Shown here one piece after another: positions 10,328 to 54,831 of a stretch of 64,000 bases of DNA (position 1 is its first letter; every line of letters starts with the position of its first letter). Source of the stretch: Candidatus Iainarchaeum sp. (GTDB lineage Archaea; B1Sed10-29; WALL01; JAGHAM01); NCBI GenBank assembly GCA_021161465.1, contig JAGHAM010000004.1, positions 3,035 through 67,034 on the forward strand, read 5' to 3'. Both the position numbers and the translations under genes were made by a program. Under the pieces are notes generated by a model. That model was not told where the DNA came from, did not search any database, and saw only the letters and a program-made list of their open reading frames with translations.

Positions 10328-10734
10328 GCTGGGGTGGCGGAAGTTCACGAGCAGGCAAGCTCGAGAAGTTCAGTTCACGAGCAGGCAAGCTCGAGAAACG
10401 CAATCCGGTTCAACGCGCCGGCCTCGAGTAGCCGCAAAATCGGCTAGCGCTTTAGGCGTCTCACGCTCCGCGTGAGAGCACCAGGTGTGGCCGTAAAATC
10501 GGTTCACGCGAACCGTAAAATCGGTTCACGCTTTGGGTGTTGCGCTACGCGCAAGCACCAGGCGGATGATTAAGGACTTAGTCTAAACCTAAGTGAAAAA
10601 TAACAGGTGCTAGACTTTGTCCAAGTGCCTTACGCTATATGTAAGGCAGGCATCCTGAAAGCCGGTGGGCGCAAGCCCGTGCAGGTTCAAACTGTTTCGT
10701 CTCCGTATGAAACAGGAAATTCCTGCCCCCAGCG
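10328..10734 (+). tRNA. tRNA-Ser(CGA) candidate interrupted by three introns (D-loop ~62 nt, anticodon 37/38 ~231 nt, T-loop 59/60 ~29 nt)
   Basis: Perfect 7-bp acceptor GCTGGGG/CCCCAGC with G73. U8-G9 and a 3-bp D-stem GCG/CGC with a GGTTCAA D-loop remnant. Anticodon stem CCGGC/GCCGG, loop CTCGAG|A. Type-II variable arm TGGGCGCAAGCCCGT (GNRA hairpin). T-arm GCAGG-TTCAAA[intron]T-CCTGC. Hand fold only. Confidence 0.45.
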
Positions 10735-10775
10735 TACCCTTCAACAAACATGTATACACTATAGTAACTATATAA

Positions 10776-23064: not shown

Positions 23065-23288
23065 TTAAATCCCTTAACTCGGTATGCATTATTAAATATA
23101 CACGTTCTCATTTAAATATCTTTGCAATAATATTACATATGTATTCTTCCATTCTCCTATGCCATACTAAATCAGTCTGCCCGTCTGTCATCACAGCGTT
23201 AGCTCAGAACTCATAGGGCTCATCATCTGATGTTGATTGTCCCATAATTGGAATAAAAGGCTTCTGGTGATGTATCAGTTATTGACAA

Positions 23289-28124: not shown

Positions 28125-28198
28125 AAAGAAATCACCATTTGTTCCAAATTTTGCAGTTTATTCTTAATAAACCTGCTTCGCTTACACGTAGTAAAAAG

Positions 28199-28415
28199 GG
28201 CCGCGGCCGGGAATTTCCTACCCAACTCACAATCGTGTGTGGGGTTAGGAGGGGCGCAGCCCCTCTTTTTGAACCCGGGCCAGGGGATTTCTGCAAGATG
28301 CAGGATTATCGTCTACCCCCCATAGATGGATTGCGTAGCAATCCTCTGGGGTTAGAAGGGGCGCAGCCCCTCTTTCCACAGTCCCCTATACTAGCCAGGC
28401 TATACAACCGCAGCC
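28199..28415 (-). tRNA. tRNA-His(GUG) candidate with anticodon-loop intron (~85 nt) and T-loop 59/60 intron (~56 nt)
   Basis: On the minus strand: G-1 + acceptor GCTGCGG/CCGCGGC with C73. U8. D-stem GTAT/GTAT (G-U) with D-loop AGCCTGGCTA. Anticodon stem GGGGA/TCCCC, loop CTGTGG|A (anticodon GTG). Variable TGGC. T-arm CCGGG-TTCAAA[intron]T-CCCGG. Confidence 0.5.
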
Positions 28416-35247: not shown

Positions 35248-35781
35248 TCAAAGTTCTTTGACCACGAATTTTTTACCTTGCATTCCTTGTTTTGGGAACC
35301 CTAGGCAGATGGTCAGGTCCGCGTCAACCTCCAATTCTGTGCCAATACCCGTTGGCACATCGACACTTACGATGAATACGCCTGCTTTCTTCCTGGCGTT
35401 TATTTCATTGACCAAACCCCTTATTGGTTCTCGCAGTTCCCCTTTGATGCCTATCCCAAGCAGGCAGTCGACTATGCAGTCAAAGCCATCTATAGAATCC
35501 ACAAACCTATCTGGAGATAGCTTTTCTCTATTAATCTCGGCCTCTGTGGTTTTGGTTTCAAAAGGAGCATACACTTTCGAATCTGGCAGGTGTCGTGCAG
35601 CCGTGAAGCAATCACCCCCATTGTTGCCTGAGCCGCATATAAACACAATATTACTGCATACACCTTGTTTCATAAGCTTCTTTAGTTCCTCTGCCACAGC
35701 CTTCCCTGCGTGTTCCATAAGCTGTAGGTGGTCCTTGCCTTTCTCCCAGGCGCGCATCTCTTCAACTGTAACGAATTTCAT
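35248..35781 (-). CDS. NAD(P)H-hydrate epimerase (YjeF N-terminal domain)
   Basis: 'IVFICGSGNNGGDCFTAARHL' signature of the YjeF_N family. Confidence 0.7.
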   Translation of the reverse strand: MKFVTVEEMRAWEKGKDHLQLMEHAGKAVAEELKKLMKQGVCSNIVFICGSGNNGGDCFTAARHLPDSKVYAPFETKTTEAEINREKLSPDRFVDSIDGFDCIVDCLLGIGIKGELREPIRGLVNEINARKKAGVFIVSVDVPTGIGTELEVDADLTICLGFPKQGMQGKKFVVKEL

Positions 35782-39647: not shown

Positions 39648-41138
39648 CTAGTTTCCTTTCATTTCCCACAGCTTCGTGCAGATGTCTTGAACCTTGACGC
39701 GCACTTGTTCAGTGGAGTCGCGCATGCGGATTGTTACCGTGTTATCCTTTAAAGTGTCAAAGTCGATGGTTATGCCAAATGGAACCCCTATCTCGTCAGC
39801 TCGCGCGTATCTCCTGCCAATGCTACCCGTGCCATCGTAAAACACTCTGAACCCAACACTACCGAGCATATTGTAAACTTCCCTGGCCTTTTCTGGCAAT
39901 CCGCCCTTATTGACTAGTGGATAGACGCTAACGTCATATGGCGCTACAACACTTGGTAGCTTAAGGTAATTATATTTGTGCTTCTCATCTGGCTCTGCGA
40001 GGGAGTTGTCTAAAATCAAGAAAACATTTCTGTCGACACCAAAAGAAAGTTCCAACACGTGTGGCAGGCACTTTTGGCCATCTCCATAACTAACTTCCAT
40101 AGTTTCGCCAGTGATCTCCTGATGGCCTTTTAAATCGTGGTCAGTCCTATAATGGAACCCAGCAACCTCAACCCACTTGTCTAGTGACGGCGAGTAGCAC
40201 TCAAGGTCGATGTGATACTTGTTGTAAAATGCTTTCTCTTTCTCACTGAGCTGGTGAAGTCTGAAGTTGTCCTTATTGAAACCCATGGACTCCATAAACT
40301 GGCACATTTTGGCTAGATGGAACACAAAGAAAGGTTCCATCCCAAGCTTCTTGGTAGCTTCCTTTCCAGTTATCATTATAGGATTCTTTGTCCCTTCCAG
40401 TAAGATGTTCATCTCCTGTTTCTCCACATGGTCAAAAGGAACTTCTGGTAACTTGTCAGGGTCGAAGAAGATTTGTAGTTCAGCCTGGGTGAATTCCCTG
40501 GCGCGCAACACCCCCTGCCTTGGACTTATCTCATTCCTGTAAGCCCTGCCAACCACGGCAAGGCCTAGGGGCAGCCTCTGGCGGTTCACCCTGAACTCGC
40601 GCTTGAATGCGGCATATGCTCCCTGGGCAGTTTCAGGTCTAAGATATGCAGTAACTATGTCATCTCCAGTTCCAACCTGAACTGGGAACATCAGCGTAAA
40701 AGTTTTTATCTCCTTGAACTCTCCCCCACATTTTGGGCAACGGATGTTGTGCTTTTTTATGAGCTTGCTAAGTTCTTCGGCAGTGACGCCTTCAAAGGTT
40801 TCGTGAAGCACATCCTCAACTATATGGTCGGCCCGCACGCGCTCACCGCATTTAGAACACTCAGCCACCGGGTCGAAGAAATGTTCTAAATGACCACTGC
40901 CCTTAAAAACCTTTTCAGGCATTATGGTGGTTGGTTCTATCTCATGGAAATTGTCGTTTAGAGCAAGGAAAAAAGTTCTCCAGTAGTTCTCCCATCTATG
41001 CTTTATCTCACTCCCAATACTGCCGTAATCATAAAATCCGGATATGTTGCCATGGAATTCACTATTTGGGTAAATTACTCCTCTTTGTAGCAGGATTTTG
41101 TTCAGAAGCTCAATGCGATTTATGTCCTTGTTGGGCAT
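39648..41138 (-). CDS. glyS: glycyl-tRNA synthetase (archaeal/eukaryal alpha2 type)
   Basis: 'FHGNISGFYDYGSIG' class II motif-1 region typical of GlyRS, plus a Zn-ribbon-like CxxC...CxxC insertion. Confidence 0.85.
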   Translation of the reverse strand: MPNKDINRIELLNKILLQRGVIYPNSEFHGNISGFYDYGSIGSEIKHRWENYWRTFFLALNDNFHEIEPTTIMPEKVFKGSGHLEHFFDPVAECSKCGERVRADHIVEDVLHETFEGVTAEELSKLIKKHNIRCPKCGGEFKEIKTFTLMFPVQVGTGDDIVTAYLRPETAQGAYAAFKREFRVNRQRLPLGLAVVGRAYRNEISPRQGVLRAREFTQAELQIFFDPDKLPEVPFDHVEKQEMNILLEGTKNPIMITGKEATKKLGMEPFFVFHLAKMCQFMESMGFNKDNFRLHQLSEKEKAFYNKYHIDLECYSPSLDKWVEVAGFHYRTDHDLKGHQEITGETMEVSYGDGQKCLPHVLELSFGVDRNVFLILDNSLAEPDEKHKYNYLKLPSVVAPYDVSVYPLVNKGGLPEKAREVYNMLGSVGFRVFYDGTGSIGRRYARADEIGVPFGITIDFDTLKDNTVTIRMRDSTEQVRVKVQDICTKLWEMKGN

Positions 41139-48126: not shown

Positions 48127-48775
48127 AATCTTTCATAATGTTTTCCGTGAAGGCAACAAACTTTACACAAAGAACTTAGTTCCTGGGCAACGGGTTTACG
48201 GAGAAAAACTTTTGGAAACTGGCCGGGGAGAGCTGAGGGAATGGAACCCAAACAGGTCCAAGCTGGCTGCGGTGATACTAAAGGGCTTGAAAACGTTTCC
48301 ACTCAAGCAAGATTCAAAGGTGCTCTATCTCGGTGCTGCCCAGGGAACCACTGCATCACACGTTAGCGATGTAGTGGACAAAGGTTATGTTATCTGTGTT
48401 GATGTATCCTCTAAGGCTATGGAGGAGCTGATACCTCTGTGCGAATCCCGCCAGAATATGCTTCCGGTTCTTGGAGATGCTAACAGGCCTGGAGAGTATG
48501 CTAAGTATACTCTTGGAATTAATATGATTTATCAGGATGTTGCCCAACCAAACCAAGCTAAAATACTGCTAAAGAACGCTTCACTGCTTGATCCAGGGGA
48601 GTACGCTATCTTATGTATTAAAAGTAGGTCAATAGATGTTGCAGAAGACCCAAAGAAAATCATCAAAAAAGAGTTGGAATCCGTTTCTGATGGTTTTTTT
48701 GTGAGAGAGGTGATTGACCTCGAGCCATACCACATGGACCATGCACTAGCTGTGTGTGAGAAAAAACTTAGTTAG
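48110..48775 (+). CDS. flpA: fibrillarin-like rRNA/tRNA 2'-O-methyltransferase
   Basis: 'VLYLGAAQGTTASHVSDVV' SAM-binding motif of fibrillarin. Start overlaps the Nop5 stop. Confidence 0.85.
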   Translation: MASMNEIFHNVFREGNKLYTKNLVPGQRVYGEKLLETGRGELREWNPNRSKLAAVILKGLKTFPLKQDSKVLYLGAAQGTTASHVSDVVDKGYVICVDVSSKAMEELIPLCESRQNMLPVLGDANRPGEYAKYTLGINMIYQDVAQPNQAKILLKNASLLDPGEYAILCIKSRSIDVAEDPKKIIKKELESVSDGFFVREVIDLEPYHMDHALAVCEKKLS

Positions 48776-49737
48776 GCCAGGTTATAGTCAATTATGCGCT
48801 TCATCATCACGAAGGGCTGTGCTCCACCAATCAAGCTATCACCGATGTAAAAGGAGGGGGCTACTATGGCTCCTTCTTTTATTGCCAGCTGGTAGTCTCC
48901 CTGTACTGTGCTTACCTTTTCCCCGTTTCCAAAGCATGTGTTGAACTCTTCCATATCGAGACCAACCTTCATAGCATAGCTCTTTAAGTCTTCGTCAGAC
49001 AGTGCATCCTTCAAAGATTCTGGATCCCAGTTATCATAAAGCACATCATGATATTCCCAGAATTTACCTTGGTCATAAGCGCATTCTGCTGCCTCTGCTG
49101 CCCTTTCTGACCTAGGGTGTATGCTTGTGAGCGGGAAGTTGATGAATACATATTTTGCCTTGCCAGTGTCAACATAATCTTTTATGATTTTCTTGTAGGT
49201 TGTTCTGTAGAAGTTCCTGCAGTATGCACAGTCGAAATCACCAAATTCAACTATCGTGAGCTTTGCTGACATATTTCCCTTTATGGGCTGTCCATCAAGG
49301 TTTATCTTCGATGGCGACAGTTCAGGTGTCATTAAAACAAAGTATATCTTTTCTATCTTTAGGGTTCTGTCATCCACCCTGACTTCTATAATCTTTAGGC
49401 CTTCGTTTGTTTTAGCTTCATAGTCTACAAGCCATTTGCCATTAGCGAAATTGTATCTGGTATTTTTTATTGAACCGCCGTATCTAAGGCGTGTCAGAGT
49501 ACTTAGCACAAGATGGTTCACATCATTATTTGTCCTTATTGGAAGGATTATGTTGGAAACAGACGAGGAGGGCACATTCATGTTGCATACCCTCTCCTCT
49601 TTTAGCACTTGACTGGTTCCAGCAAGTATGCCAATCATCAGGGTTGCTGAGATAAATACAATTATCAAATACCATGTTCCCGGAGGTATATCCCATGGAC
49701 ATTCTTCGCTCAGCAACTTCTTGAGCTTTTCCATCAT
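48772..49737 (-). CDS. membrane-anchored thioredoxin-fold DsbA-like oxidoreductase
   Basis: 'FGDFDCAYCRNFY' CxxC active site, with an N-terminal TM helix. The ORF-track N-terminal extension to 49818 overlaps the tRNA 3' exon and is probably not translated (start at 'MMEKLKK'). Confidence 0.6.
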   Translation of the reverse strand: MMEKLKKLLSEECPWDIPPGTWYLIIVFISATLMIGILAGTSQVLKEERVCNMNVPSSSVSNIILPIRTNNDVNHLVLSTLTRLRYGGSIKNTRYNFANGKWLVDYEAKTNEGLKIIEVRVDDRTLKIEKIYFVLMTPELSPSKINLDGQPIKGNMSAKLTIVEFGDFDCAYCRNFYRTTYKKIIKDYVDTGKAKYVFINFPLTSIHPRSERAAEAAECAYDQGKFWEYHDVLYDNWDPESLKDALSDEDLKSYAMKVGLDMEEFNTCFGNGEKVSTVQGDYQLAIKEGAIVAPSFYIGDSLIGGAQPFVMMKRIIDYNLA

Positions 49738-49757
49738 GTTATTACTCCATTTGTAGG

Positions 49758-50188
49758 TGGGCGCGAAGGGACTTTCCACCCCAATAGGGGGTTTGAGGCG
49801 CACCAACCTTCCCTGCACACATGGATTTGATAACCTTCTATCTCCATGCAGGTACCCTCTGCAGGGTTAGAGGTTCGTCCAGACCATAAGTCTAAACGTG
49901 TGCACCCTTTTCTTCCTGCGTATCGGGTGGCCTCGTGCCACCCCTGCAGGTTTAGAGATTCGTTCTAGACTGTAGGTCTAGAACGGGTGCAACCCTCCTG
50001 GTGCAACCAATCTTCCTACAATCGGGATACGGATGATATTCCATCCCCATGCAGGTTTAGAAAGGGTGCAACCCTCCTGGTGCAACCAATCTTTCGAACC
50101 CTCGGCCTCAGGTTATCCTCAGCCACGCTGAGTGTACCAGAACGGGCCTTATAAGACCTGCGCTCTGACCTGGCTAAGCTACGCGCCC
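49758..50188 (-). tRNA. tRNA-Ile(UAU)? candidate with anticodon intron (~35 nt) and very long (~320 nt) T-loop 59/60 intron
   Basis: Minus strand: acceptor GGGCGCG/CGCGCCC with A73. UA. Canonical D-arm GCTT-AGCCAGGTCA-GAGC. Anticodon stem CAGGT/ACCTG, loop CTTATA|A. Variable AGGCC. T-arm GAGGG-TTCGAA[intron]T-CCCTT. The intron carries two 28-nt direct repeats. Confidence 0.4.
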
Positions 50189-50296
50189 ACATTTATGGTT
50201 TAGCGCTTTATATATTTAAAACCTACTTTAGTGATTATCTCCTTTATATTCGTTTTACCAGCACTTTTTTAATGTAGTTAATCTTAATTTTCCCCT

Positions 50297-50932
50297 ATGG
50301 TGTTTTGGGATCTTGAATCAAAACGTCAGTCAATACATCTGGTTTTTGGGGTATTGTTTGCATTTATTGTGTACATGTTGAAACCCGAGCAGAGCTTTGC
50401 ATTTTTACTTGGTGGGGCAGCTTTGACTCTCCTGTTATCGTTGGAGATATCTGAGGGTAGGAAGGTTCCTGTGTTTTACTGGGTTGTTAGGCATACAGAA
50501 AGGGCGAACAATAAACCAGGCAGTGGGGTGACGTGGTACTTCTTTGGAGTTTTGCTGACATTCTCAATATTTTATTTCTATTTCAATGTGCCGAAGGAGA
50601 TAATTGTAGCATCCATGTTGATTCTCGCTATTGGGGACTCAGTTTGCACAGGGCTTGGGAGAAAGCTTGGCAGAAGGCTCCTACCCAAGACACAGACAAA
50701 ATCATGGGCGGGTAGTGGGCTCGGATTCTTATTTTCATTCTTAGGCGCGTCTGTGCCCCTGGCTAATATTTTCCCGCCAGAGCAAACAGTGACCATCGCA
50801 CTGATTGGTGCAGCTGTTGGGATGCTAACAGAAGCATATCTAAGGAAGCTCAATGATAACTTAACTATCCCAGTAGTTTCATGTGCTGCGATGAGCTTAG
50901 CAGCTTATTGGCTTGGTTGGATTGCAATTTAA
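50297..50932 (+). CDS. membrane protein of CTP-transferase/dolichol-kinase/CarS-like family
   Basis: 'GDSVCTGLGRKLGRRLLPKTQTKSWAGSGLGFLF', the same signature as the C-terminal half of 29978..30907. About 6 TM helices. Confidence 0.45.
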   Translation: MVFWDLESKRQSIHLVFGVLFAFIVYMLKPEQSFAFLLGGAALTLLLSLEISEGRKVPVFYWVVRHTERANNKPGSGVTWYFFGVLLTFSIFYFYFNVPKEIIVASMLILAIGDSVCTGLGRKLGRRLLPKTQTKSWAGSGLGFLFSFLGASVPLANIFPPEQTVTIALIGAAVGMLTEAYLRKLNDNLTIPVVSCAAMSLAAYWLGWIAI

Positions 50933-54664: not shown

Positions 54665-54831
54665 GGACGCGTAGCCTAGCCAGGATTGTTCCGTGGCAAC
54701 AGCTCATGGAATCCTGATAGGGCACCGGCCTTCTAAGCCGGCTATCGGGGGTTCAAAATAAGGAGGAGGGACACGTTCCCTCCTCCCTTATAAGCCCTTC
54801 TCCTTTGCGAGTGAGTTTCCCTCCGCGTCCG
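54665..54831 (+). tRNA. tRNA-Arg(UCU) with D-loop intron (~32 nt) and T-loop 59/60 intron (~60 nt)
   Basis: Acceptor GGACGCG/CGCGTCC with G73. U8 A9. D-stem GCCT/GGGC, D-loop AGCCAGGA[intron]TA. Anticodon stem CCGGC/GCCGG, loop CTTCTAA. Variable CTATC. T-arm GGGGG-TTCAAA[intron with 12-bp hairpin]T-CCCTC. Confidence 0.6.

Follow-up and report, generated by a model that had tools for sequence, protein, structure and literature searches.

Introns of archaeal tRNA genes have been described as shorter than 100 nucleotides (nt; PMC4033280), and a eukaryotic tRNA intron of 323 nt was singled out as 'very large' (PMC8450103). Introns at the T-loop position 59/60, and tRNAs with several introns, are known in DPANN archaea and Thermoproteales (PMC3239211, PMC5829648), and in vitro the ARMAN-2 splicing endonuclease was reported to cut an intron at this position that lies in a relaxed hBH motif (PMC3239211). 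ARMAN lineages carry tRNA-Ile(UAU) and lack both TiaS and tRNA-Ile(CAU) (PMC3239211); this tRNA, termed 'Ile3', also occurs in Nanoarchaeum equitans as well as in Korarchaeum cryptofilum (PMC8450103). Here, we describe a tRNA-Ile(UAU) gene in a 64-kb stretch of contig JAGHAM010000004.1 from the archaeon Candidatus Iainarchaeum sp. (the entire 64,000-nt stretch is hereafter called the window), in which three exons are interrupted by a 35-nt intron at position 37/38 and a 321-nt intron at position 59/60. We consider it likely, with a probability of roughly 0.8, that this is a functional AUA-decoding gene of a DPANN archaeon, the longer intron of which is removed by the splicing endonuclease and has grown from an intron of approximately 50-57 nt.

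The 59/60 intron of ARMAN-2 pre-tRNA-Cys(GCA) resembles the long intron described here in its T-loop position, in the use of the T-stem as the outer helix and in having its splice sites within 3-nt bulges. Likewise, a canonical 37/38 intron is present besides, and the host is a DPANN archaeon with heavily disrupted tRNA genes. The ARMAN-2 intron is, however, only 13 nt in length and its cleavage was demonstrated in vitro, whereas cleavage of the 321-nt intron is predicted; moreover, the interior of the latter is composed of four head-to-tail units with many stable hairpins. The tRNA-Ile(UAU) of ARMAN-2 likewise contains a canonical 37/38 intron, of 25 nt (PMC3239211, PMC8450103), and its exons are essentially no different. 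ARMAN thus offers a DPANN precedent for UAU reading AUA without agmatidine, as we suggest for the present gene.

In Thermoproteales, the sharing of intron families across tRNAs and positions goes by the name of 'intron transposition' (Fujishima et al. 2010; summaries in PMC4033280 and PMC4090602). Similarly, a module of the form AGRGGGN..CCCYUYCUAA occurs in two introns of a tRNA-His gene in the window and in the T-loop intron of tRNA-Ile, in the window and in relatives; unlike in Thermoproteales, the copies here stack in tandem within one intron, instead of or besides spreading, and the host belongs to DPANN and not to Crenarchaeota. The euryarchaeal tRNA-Trp intron (~100 nt, containing a box C/D guide RNA) is comparable as a long, structured intron of the endonuclease-spliced type, but it lies at 37/38 and not at 59/60, and the long tRNA-Ile intron has no C/D boxes on either strand. 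Archaeal rRNA introns bounded by bulge-helix-bulge (BHB) motifs reach hundreds of nucleotides, some with open reading frames (ORFs) for homing endonucleases, and show that the splicing endonuclease can handle long inserts. The tRNA-Ile intron is similar to these in size and in the machinery proposed, yet it is hosted by a tRNA, has no ORF and has a tandem-repeat interior. Literature searches retrieved no published archaeal tRNA intron of 321-nt size, which does not by itself prove that none exists. The intron stands apart by its size, its tandem-array interior and the orthologous series that documents its growth; tRNA-Ile(UAU) without TiaS, in N. equitans and K. cryptofilum as well as in ARMAN, 59/60 introns and multi-intron tRNAs, and introns shared between tRNAs were already known.

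Results

The tRNA-Ile gene lies on the minus strand at 50188-49758, and an earlier reading made from the sequence alone (the sequence-only reading), which had suspected a tRNA-Ile with a T-loop insertion of about 320 nt, had given exactly these coordinates. When the three exons (39, 22 and 14 nt) were joined in silico, a 75-nt cloverleaf was obtained that ARAGORN identified as tRNA-Ile(tat), with 21 of 21 stem pairs formed and the conserved bases of the D- and T-loops intact (Table 1); the proposed tRNA is thereby borne out, with an insert of 321 nt. Upon in silico deletion of the long insert alone, ARAGORN itself reported the 35-nt intron at the canonical site. The anticodon had been read as UAU on the condition that a second intron sits at 37/38, and that assignment holds: the intron is placed there by ARAGORN, and the loop CUUAUAA, with its UAU anticodon, is found in all eight of the orthologous genes considered below. 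In the raw window, neither ARAGORN, run without introns and with introns of 0-400 nt permitted, nor Rfam, at gathering and E-value thresholds, reported a tRNA, and no second Ile-like tRNA gene was detected within the window. Chance would supply a 12-mer compatible with both the T-stem and the acceptor stem, G-U pairs included, ~3.5 times per shuffled 64-kb window, counting both strands, and ~0.014 times within 500 nt downstream; the actual 12-mer in exon 3 forms 11 of its 12 pairs by Watson-Crick pairing.

Orthologues were sought on contigs that encode homologues of the neighbouring dolichol-kinase-like protein, and the identities given here are those of the neighbouring protein relative to the window. 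A second, protein-profile scan of metagenome contigs added L025-L030, of which only L027 was useful. The same tRNA-Ile(UAU) gene occupies the syntenic site in L018, L019/L020, L021 together with L017, L022, L023, L024 and L027, sharing a neighbourhood that comprises a fibrillarin/Nop cluster, the dolichol-kinase-like gene and a CBS-domain gene, and all of the orthologues have an intron of 31-40 nt at 37/38. Their T-loop introns, by contrast, form a graded series: none in L024 (53% identity) and apparently none in the more distant L027 (5' part only, the contig ending in the T-loop); 53 nt in L023 (58%), 49 nt in L019/L020 (65%) and 57 nt in L018 (70%); an intron opening like that of L018 in L022 (70%), where the contig ends; and at least ~196 nt in L021 (5' part) and L017 (3' part), which come from the same sample (85%) and both stop inside the intron. 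The sequence-only reading had offered an exceptionally long 59/60 intron as one of two explanations, and this one is favoured by the shorter orthologous intron at the same position, the common junction motifs and the conserved, covarying exons. An exact-pattern scan of metagenome contigs with the anticodon-arm 20-mer gave no match, although L023, a JGI contig, contains the 20-mer, so that its sample is evidently absent from the collection scanned. A fibrillarin query of genome contigs returned only distant archaea at 41-49% identity, mostly Asgard.

In an alignment of six spliced orthologues, all 126 of the 126 pair cells are paired, compared with 25-58% in controls in which the 3' partner was slid. 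Both-sided changes occur at four pairs, and three of these are acceptor pairs that link exon 1 and exon 3 across the intron. Relative to the closest relative (L021 and L017), itself long-introned, the exons are 96% identical; three positions differ, two of them forming a compensatory A-U to G-C pair change in the anticodon stem and the third lying in the variable loop. Intron 1 is 92% identical between the two, whereas identity in intron 2 is 70% in the best-matching block and 43% elsewhere; in the flanks it is 62-73%. The disparity between exons and intron 2, together with the compensatory change, indicates that the exons have been under purifying selection as a tRNA in the long-intron lineages, unlike a pseudogene.

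The BHB motif is defined by a 4-base-pair (bp) central helix between two 3-nt bulges that hold the splice sites, and at 37/38 the first two anticodon bases take part in the central helix (PMC4090602). At intron 1, C32-U33-U34 are paired in the central helix and A35 faces a G (three of four pairs); the outer helix measures 5 bp and the inner one 4 bp. At intron 2, the T-stem serves as the outer helix (5 bp, GAGGG/CCCUU), U54-U55-C56 pair with GAA at 49776-49774, and the bulges are A58-A59|A and A-G|U60, with hairpin 1 following the 5' bulge. The same arrangement recurs in the orthologues and in the tRNA-His and tRNA-Arg genes of the window. With three of four central pairs each, neither junction forms a strict hBHBh' motif, with its full central helix and two flanking helices, and that of intron 2 is of the relaxed hBH type, which broad-specificity endonucleases accept (PMC4090602). 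BHB prediction at both junctions had been suggested as a check, and it succeeds in part: both junctions are BHB-like, nearly canonical at 37/38 and relaxed at 59/60, but the strict motif is found at neither. Full 4-bp central helices are present at the T-loop introns of tRNA-Arg in the window (UUCA/UGAG), of L019 (UUCG/UGAA) and of L023 (UUCA/UGGA), and the minimum-energy fold of L023 itself shows the T-stem, a 3-nt bulge and the helix. The 3' end GGAA-N-N|U before the T-stem is common to the tRNA-His gene of the window and to a tRNA-like gene near 10684.

Intron 2 has a GC content of 52%, compared with 43% for the window. Two 28-nt direct repeats had been noted in it, and exactly two copies (50064-50091 and 49985-50012) are indeed present where none is expected; they are part of a 44-nt repeat of 93% identity. 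A further claim, of three copies of CTAAACCTGCA, stands for two exact copies, the third having a mismatch, and this 11-mer alone is within chance (1.58 expected; 25 of 100 shuffles reach three). The intron can be divided into four units, U1-U4 (Table 1), which follow a common layout. First comes a segment like hairpin 1, in some units with an additional hairpin after it; the YCUCUAAA linker is next, followed by a hairpin of the form CCUGCA...UGYAGG or CCCCC...GGGG and by AAG. The first 40-44 nt of U1 and U2 are nearly identical, and U4 is the counterpart of the ancestral intron's 3' half and provides the 3' junction. The short form of the intron, as seen in L018, L023 and the T-loop intron of tRNA-His in the window, consists of A-AGA, hairpin 1 (AGRAGGGN-loop-NCCCUUUCU), the linker AAA, hairpin 2 (CCCC-loop-GGGG) and N-GGRAA-N. 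Tandem Repeats Finder gave no array for the insert, the units differing by too many indels. Once delimited manually and with MAFFT, U1-U4 aligned with each other and with the introns of L018 and L023; MAFFT did not place the short introns in structural register. In L017, the boundary between U1 and U2 (GGAAG-AU(U)GGUUGCACCAG...) is kept, so that the expansion began before the split of the two closest genomes.

The hairpins of the insert had been likened to those in the tRNA-His introns, and this resemblance is real. The motif AGGG-N3-9-CCCNTYCTA occurs four times in the window against 0.11 expected, always in tRNA introns (two in His and two in Ile), and in the fetched loci it is confined to the orthologous Ile introns. 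The precursor region folds far better than shuffled sequences (z = -6.6). The insert contains no ORF, and neither C boxes (RUGAUGA) nor D boxes (CUGA) were found in it on either strand. An E-value search of 49600-50350 against Rfam gave only two chance-level matches (E = 0.48 and 8.6) and no family, including self-splicing group I and II introns. Each unit might begin with a degenerate copy of exon 3 (AUUGGUUGCACC set against UCCCUUCGCGCC), an idea that we considered and did not adopt; the segment also precedes the first unit and is more like a partial copy of hairpin 1.

A TATA-box-like element, TTTAAATATATAAAG, was read from the sequence upstream of exon 1 (Table 1) and is the putative promoter of the whole tRNA-Ile gene. 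Elements of the TTTAAATA type are similarly placed upstream of exon 1 in the orthologues. No TATA-like element was found within the 321-nt insert on either strand, and TTTAAATATATAAAG is the only promoter-like element at the locus.

Table 1. Features of the tRNA-Ile(UAU) locus, in window coordinates
Feature	Positions	Strand	Extent or tRNA positions	Content	Basis
Promoter-like element	50206-50220	-	centred ~25 nt upstream of tRNA position 1	TATA-box-like TTTAAATATATAAAG	read from sequence
Exon 1	50150-50188	-	tRNA positions 1-37	acceptor 5' strand GGGCGCG, U8 A9, D-arm GCUU-AGCCAGGUCA-GAGC, anticodon stem CAGGU, loop CUUAUA (anticodon UAU)	in silico splicing and ARAGORN, orthologue alignment, pair counts
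Intron 1	50115-50149	-	35 nt, canonical position 37/38		ARAGORN and BHB scan
Exon 2	50093-50114	-	tRNA positions 38-59	A-ACCUG (anticodon stem 3' strand), variable loop AGGCC, T-stem 5' strand GAGGG, T-loop UUCGAA	ARAGORN and orthologue alignment
Intron 2	49772-50092	-	321 nt, T-loop position 59/60	units U1-U4	
Unit U1	50014-50092	-	intron positions 1-79, 79 nt	first copy of GAUUGGUUGCACCAGGAGGGUUGCACCC, hairpin 1 (AGGAGGGU-UGC-ACCCUUUCU), linker AAA, CCUGCA...UUGUAGG hairpin	
Unit U2	49914-50013	-	intron positions 80-179, 100 nt	28-nt repeat (second copy), additional perfect hairpin GUUCUAGAC-CUACA-GUCUAGAAC, linker CUCUAAA, CCUGC...GCAGG hairpin	
Unit U3	49810-49913	-	intron positions 180-283, 104 nt	more diverged copy; hairpin GUUUAGAC-UUAUG-GUCUGGAC, linker CUCUAAC, CCUGCA...UGCAGG hairpin, BHB-like 3' site GGACGA|ACCUC	
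Unit U4	49772-49809	-	intron positions 284-321, 38 nt	linker CUCAAA, hairpin 2 CCCCC-UAU-UGGGG, U-GGAA-AG; GAA pairs with U54-U55-C56, AG|U is the 3' bulge	alignment to L018, L023 and His introns, BHB scan
Exon 3	49758-49771	-	tRNA positions 60-73	U60, T-stem 3' strand CCCUU, acceptor 3' strand CGCGCCC, discriminator A73; CCA not encoded	inverted repeat, ARAGORN, identical 3' exon in relative L017
DsbA/thioredoxin-like gene	48772-49737	-		separate from the tRNA; start ATG at 49737, GGAG at 49748-49745 upstream (8 nt)	
Dolichol-kinase-like gene	50297-50932			other flank of the tRNA	

Discussion

We propose that a single precursor of ~430 nt would be transcribed from the TATA-type promoter upstream of exon 1, that the archaeal tRNA splicing endonuclease would excise both introns and that tRNA ligase would join the exons, the excised introns probably being circularised by the same ligase. 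The 35-nt intron would be cut in its near-canonical BHB motif, and the 321-nt intron in the relaxed motif at A58-A59|A and A-G|U60 (bonds 50093|50092 and 49772|49771), with U54-U55-C56 paired with the GAA that lies four to two bases before the end of the intron. The predicted joined sequences are GTCTTATA|AACCTGAGG for exons 1 and 2 and GGGTTCGAA|TCCCTTCGCG for exons 2 and 3, and the predicted circular junction of intron 2 is ...GGGGTGGAAAG|AGATTGGTTGC.... Because CCA is not encoded, it would be added after transcription, and the mature product would read AUA. Only the two intron ends would serve recognition; the interior could therefore have grown by tandem duplication, and its four head-to-tail units would derive from an ancestral two-hairpin intron of ~50-57 nt that persists in relatives. 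If the intron is spliced in this manner, an interior that is heavily structured and has expanded more than six-fold is no obstacle to the endonuclease, provided that the two short junction elements survive. A single orthologous site with no, short, long and very long introns across graded relatives also provides a system in which the gain, movement and growth of introns can be addressed.

Several points weigh against this proposal. The central helix at intron 2 has three of four pairs (G57 lies opposite G), and the inner helix is of ~1 bp with almost no continuity. A fold constrained to the cloverleaf and BHB motifs has an energy of -174.9, compared with -191.2 unconstrained; it is thus ~16 kcal/mol above the minimum, and the internal helices of the intron could compete with folding of the tRNA. 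Mimics of the 3' junction occur inside U2 (GAACGA|AUCUC, cut after 49960) and U3 (GGACGA|ACCUC, cut after 49875) and could misdirect cleavage. The similarity between the units and the ancestral intron is short (~25-40 nt), and an nhmmer profile of four related introns matches the Ile intron weakly (E = 0.12 and 4.2 over the whole window). The exon structure, orthology, covariation and the anatomy of junctions and repeats are shown by the sequences, whereas it is by deduction that we assume one transcript, cleavage at these particular bonds, ligation of the exons and growth through duplication. Finally, a second AUA-decoding tRNA may lie beyond the 64-kb window.

A bolder view, which we regard as doubtful, is that the introns of this lineage are an actively proliferating modular family, moving among His 37/38, His 59/60 and Ile 59/60 and inserting or duplicating inside introns already present. 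The Ile locus would then be a record of stepwise growth (0, ~50, ~200 and 321 nt), and its product would be a large, structured circular RNA, perhaps with a function of its own.

A variant of the proposed splicing, improbable in our estimation, is a stepwise, nested removal in which an inner piece of 219 nt (50093-49875) is cut first, UUCGAA is regenerated and an intron of ~101 nt is removed next, at the true 3' junction. The pair 50094/49875 forms the best strict hBHBh' motif of the region, with a central helix of 4/4, an outer helix of 4 bp (GAGG/CCUC) and an inner helix of 6 bp (three wobble); a weaker equivalent exists in U2 (cut after 49960), and sequential removal of closely spaced archaeal tRNA introns is known (PMC8450103). 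However, ~90,000 position pairs were scanned and chance motifs are numerous among them; for a motif such as this, ~0.1 chance hit is roughly expected, and more given the bias of the intron toward T-arm-complementary sequence. Furthermore, the equivalent site in L017 (GGAACGU|UCCCA) has an outer helix of 2 bp, so the nested site is not conserved, and none of our observations requires a nested step. The U2 and U3 mimics resemble a spliced T-loop followed by the T-stem 3' strand (UUCGAAUCCCU) and are BHB-like with the 5' half of the T-arm, strictly so in the case of U3; they may act as decoys, be remnants of a T-arm duplication or serve in stepwise splicing.

Slightly less probable again is the notion that the excised intron is a functional, stable and structured circular RNA of 321 nt, serving in protein binding or as a scaffold or sponge, and that its expansion was adaptive. 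The strong folding of the region would agree with such a role, as would the retention of the long intron in two lineages and the units' preservation of the hairpin-YCUCUAAA-hairpin-AAG layout with different stems (CCUGCA/UGYAGG and CCCCC/GGGG), although recent duplication would by itself account for hairpins retained in this way. Circularisation of archaeal tRNA introns is known (Danan et al. 2012, as cited in PMC7565381), and the tRNA-Trp intron is a precedent for a functional one (PMC4090602). Against this, the interior is 43-70% identical between the two closest genomes, with large indels, relatives manage with 0-57 nt, and neither an RNA family nor box motifs were found in the intron.

We consider it very unlikely that the gene is decaying, i.e., that the expansion broke the T-arm, that the locus is not expressed as a tRNA and that AUA is read by another tRNA. 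An intron more than three times the usual upper size for archaeal tRNA introns (<100 nt, PMC4033280), the relaxed BHB motif, the competing internal structure and the decoy sites might all be taken as signs of decay, and our view is limited to 64 kb of the genome. Yet none of the 21 stem pairs is disrupted, the conserved bases of both the D-loop and the T-loop are in place, the exons are far better conserved than the intron (96% against 43-70%), and a compensatory double change has occurred relative to a long-introned gene. In addition, the promoter element is kept, the gene is the syntenic sole copy in every relative examined, and the window holds no second copy.

Invasion by a foreign or dispersed repeat element, the other explanation offered by the sequence-only reading, found no support. 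Comparison of the insert with the rest of the genome had been suggested, and within the 64-kb window no second copy exists; none was found in the 30 fetched loci either, and a scan of viral contigs for the repeat gave 0 matches. The repeats are internal and resemble the lineage's own intron. A CRISPR-like mini-array was also rejected, as there are only two good repeats, located inside a tRNA precursor and without cas context.

It is hardly credible that the gene is split, with the 14-nt 3' part made as a transcript of its own and joined in trans to exons 1 and 2, as happens in Nanoarchaeum or Caldivirga. The parts are far apart for a tRNA gene and split tRNAs exist in a DPANN archaeon (PMC4033280), but the two parts here are colinear on one strand, 321 nt apart, with no TATA-like element between them, and in the orthologues a short cis intron of the ordinary kind occupies this position.

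Five independent short-read contigs of this organism and of its relatives (L015, L016, L017, L021 and L022) end inside the T-loop intron of tRNA-Ile, showing that its repeats or hairpins systematically break assemblies at this locus. Short-read assemblers break at real repeats, and the contigs L015 and L016 begin inside the intron at repeats. L016, an independent ENA assembly from another sample, reproduces intron positions 40-321 (282 nt) and exon 3 base for base, and L015, a further ENA assembly, reproduces positions 136-321 (the last 186 nt) and exon 3 exactly; these agreements, and a longest repeat of 44 nt that is shorter than a typical read, leave a misjoining or collapse of repeats with a negligible probability in spite of the broken contigs. 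A slight uncertainty remains, confined to the number of U1-type units.

Neighbouring and other RNA genes in the window

The start of the adjacent DsbA-like gene in the ORF list (GTG at 49818) had been suspected to be wrong, and rightly so: it would overlap exon 3, and the deposited protein, of 321 amino acids and 100% identical from MMEKL (metagenome-assembled genome 'Candidatus Diapherotrites archaeon', DPANN), begins at the ATG at 49737. Between the 3' end of the tRNA and this start codon lie 21 nt (49737-49757) without a TATA-like element, and the tRNA-then-DsbA order is also found in L017 and in the distant L024. The DsbA-like mRNA may share a transcript with the tRNA, or its start may lie within the intron, where a weak TTATCAAA is present at ~49832-49825.

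At least three tRNA genes (Ile, His and Arg) and a fourth fragment near 10684 were recognised in the window by hand, all of them bearing a T-loop intron. Under automatic annotation this genome will look tRNA-poor, and a non-canonical intron of 321 nt is likely to be missed routinely; hidden disrupted genes have been suspected behind the 'missing tRNAs' of DPANN and Asgard genomes (PMC5829648). By in silico splicing and ARAGORN, tRNA-His(GUG) was located on the minus strand at 28198-28415, with an intron of ~87 nt at 37/38 and one of 55 nt at 59/60. Both introns open with a nearly identical AAGAGGGGCUGCGCCCCUYCUAACCCC, and it looks as if one sequence had been copied to two positions of one gene. 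In the same manner, tRNA-Arg(UCU) was located on the plus strand at 54665-54831, with introns of 32 nt in the D-loop and of 60 nt at 59/60 (central helix UUCA/UGAG, 4 bp). On the plus strand at ~10380-10735 lies the 3' portion of a Ser/Leu-type tRNA, which has a long variable arm and a 59/60 intron of ~28 nt (CUGUUUC...GAAACAGGAAAU); the 5' part of this tRNA-like gene near 10684 was looked for and not found. Upstream of this part, at 10440-10560, there are direct repeats, two copies each of CGTAAAATCGGTTCACGC and GCACCAGG, which may represent further introns or a split arrangement. Two tRNA-like spots, at 40476 and 35554-35578, were dropped as they look like coding sequence. A candidate box C/D small RNA on the minus strand at 23170-23230, the Rfam matches of which (sR12, sR2, sR41 and sR1) are all below the gathering threshold (best 30.1 bits, against 38), has recognisable C, D', C' and D boxes (AUGAUGA...CUGA...UGAUGA...CUGA).

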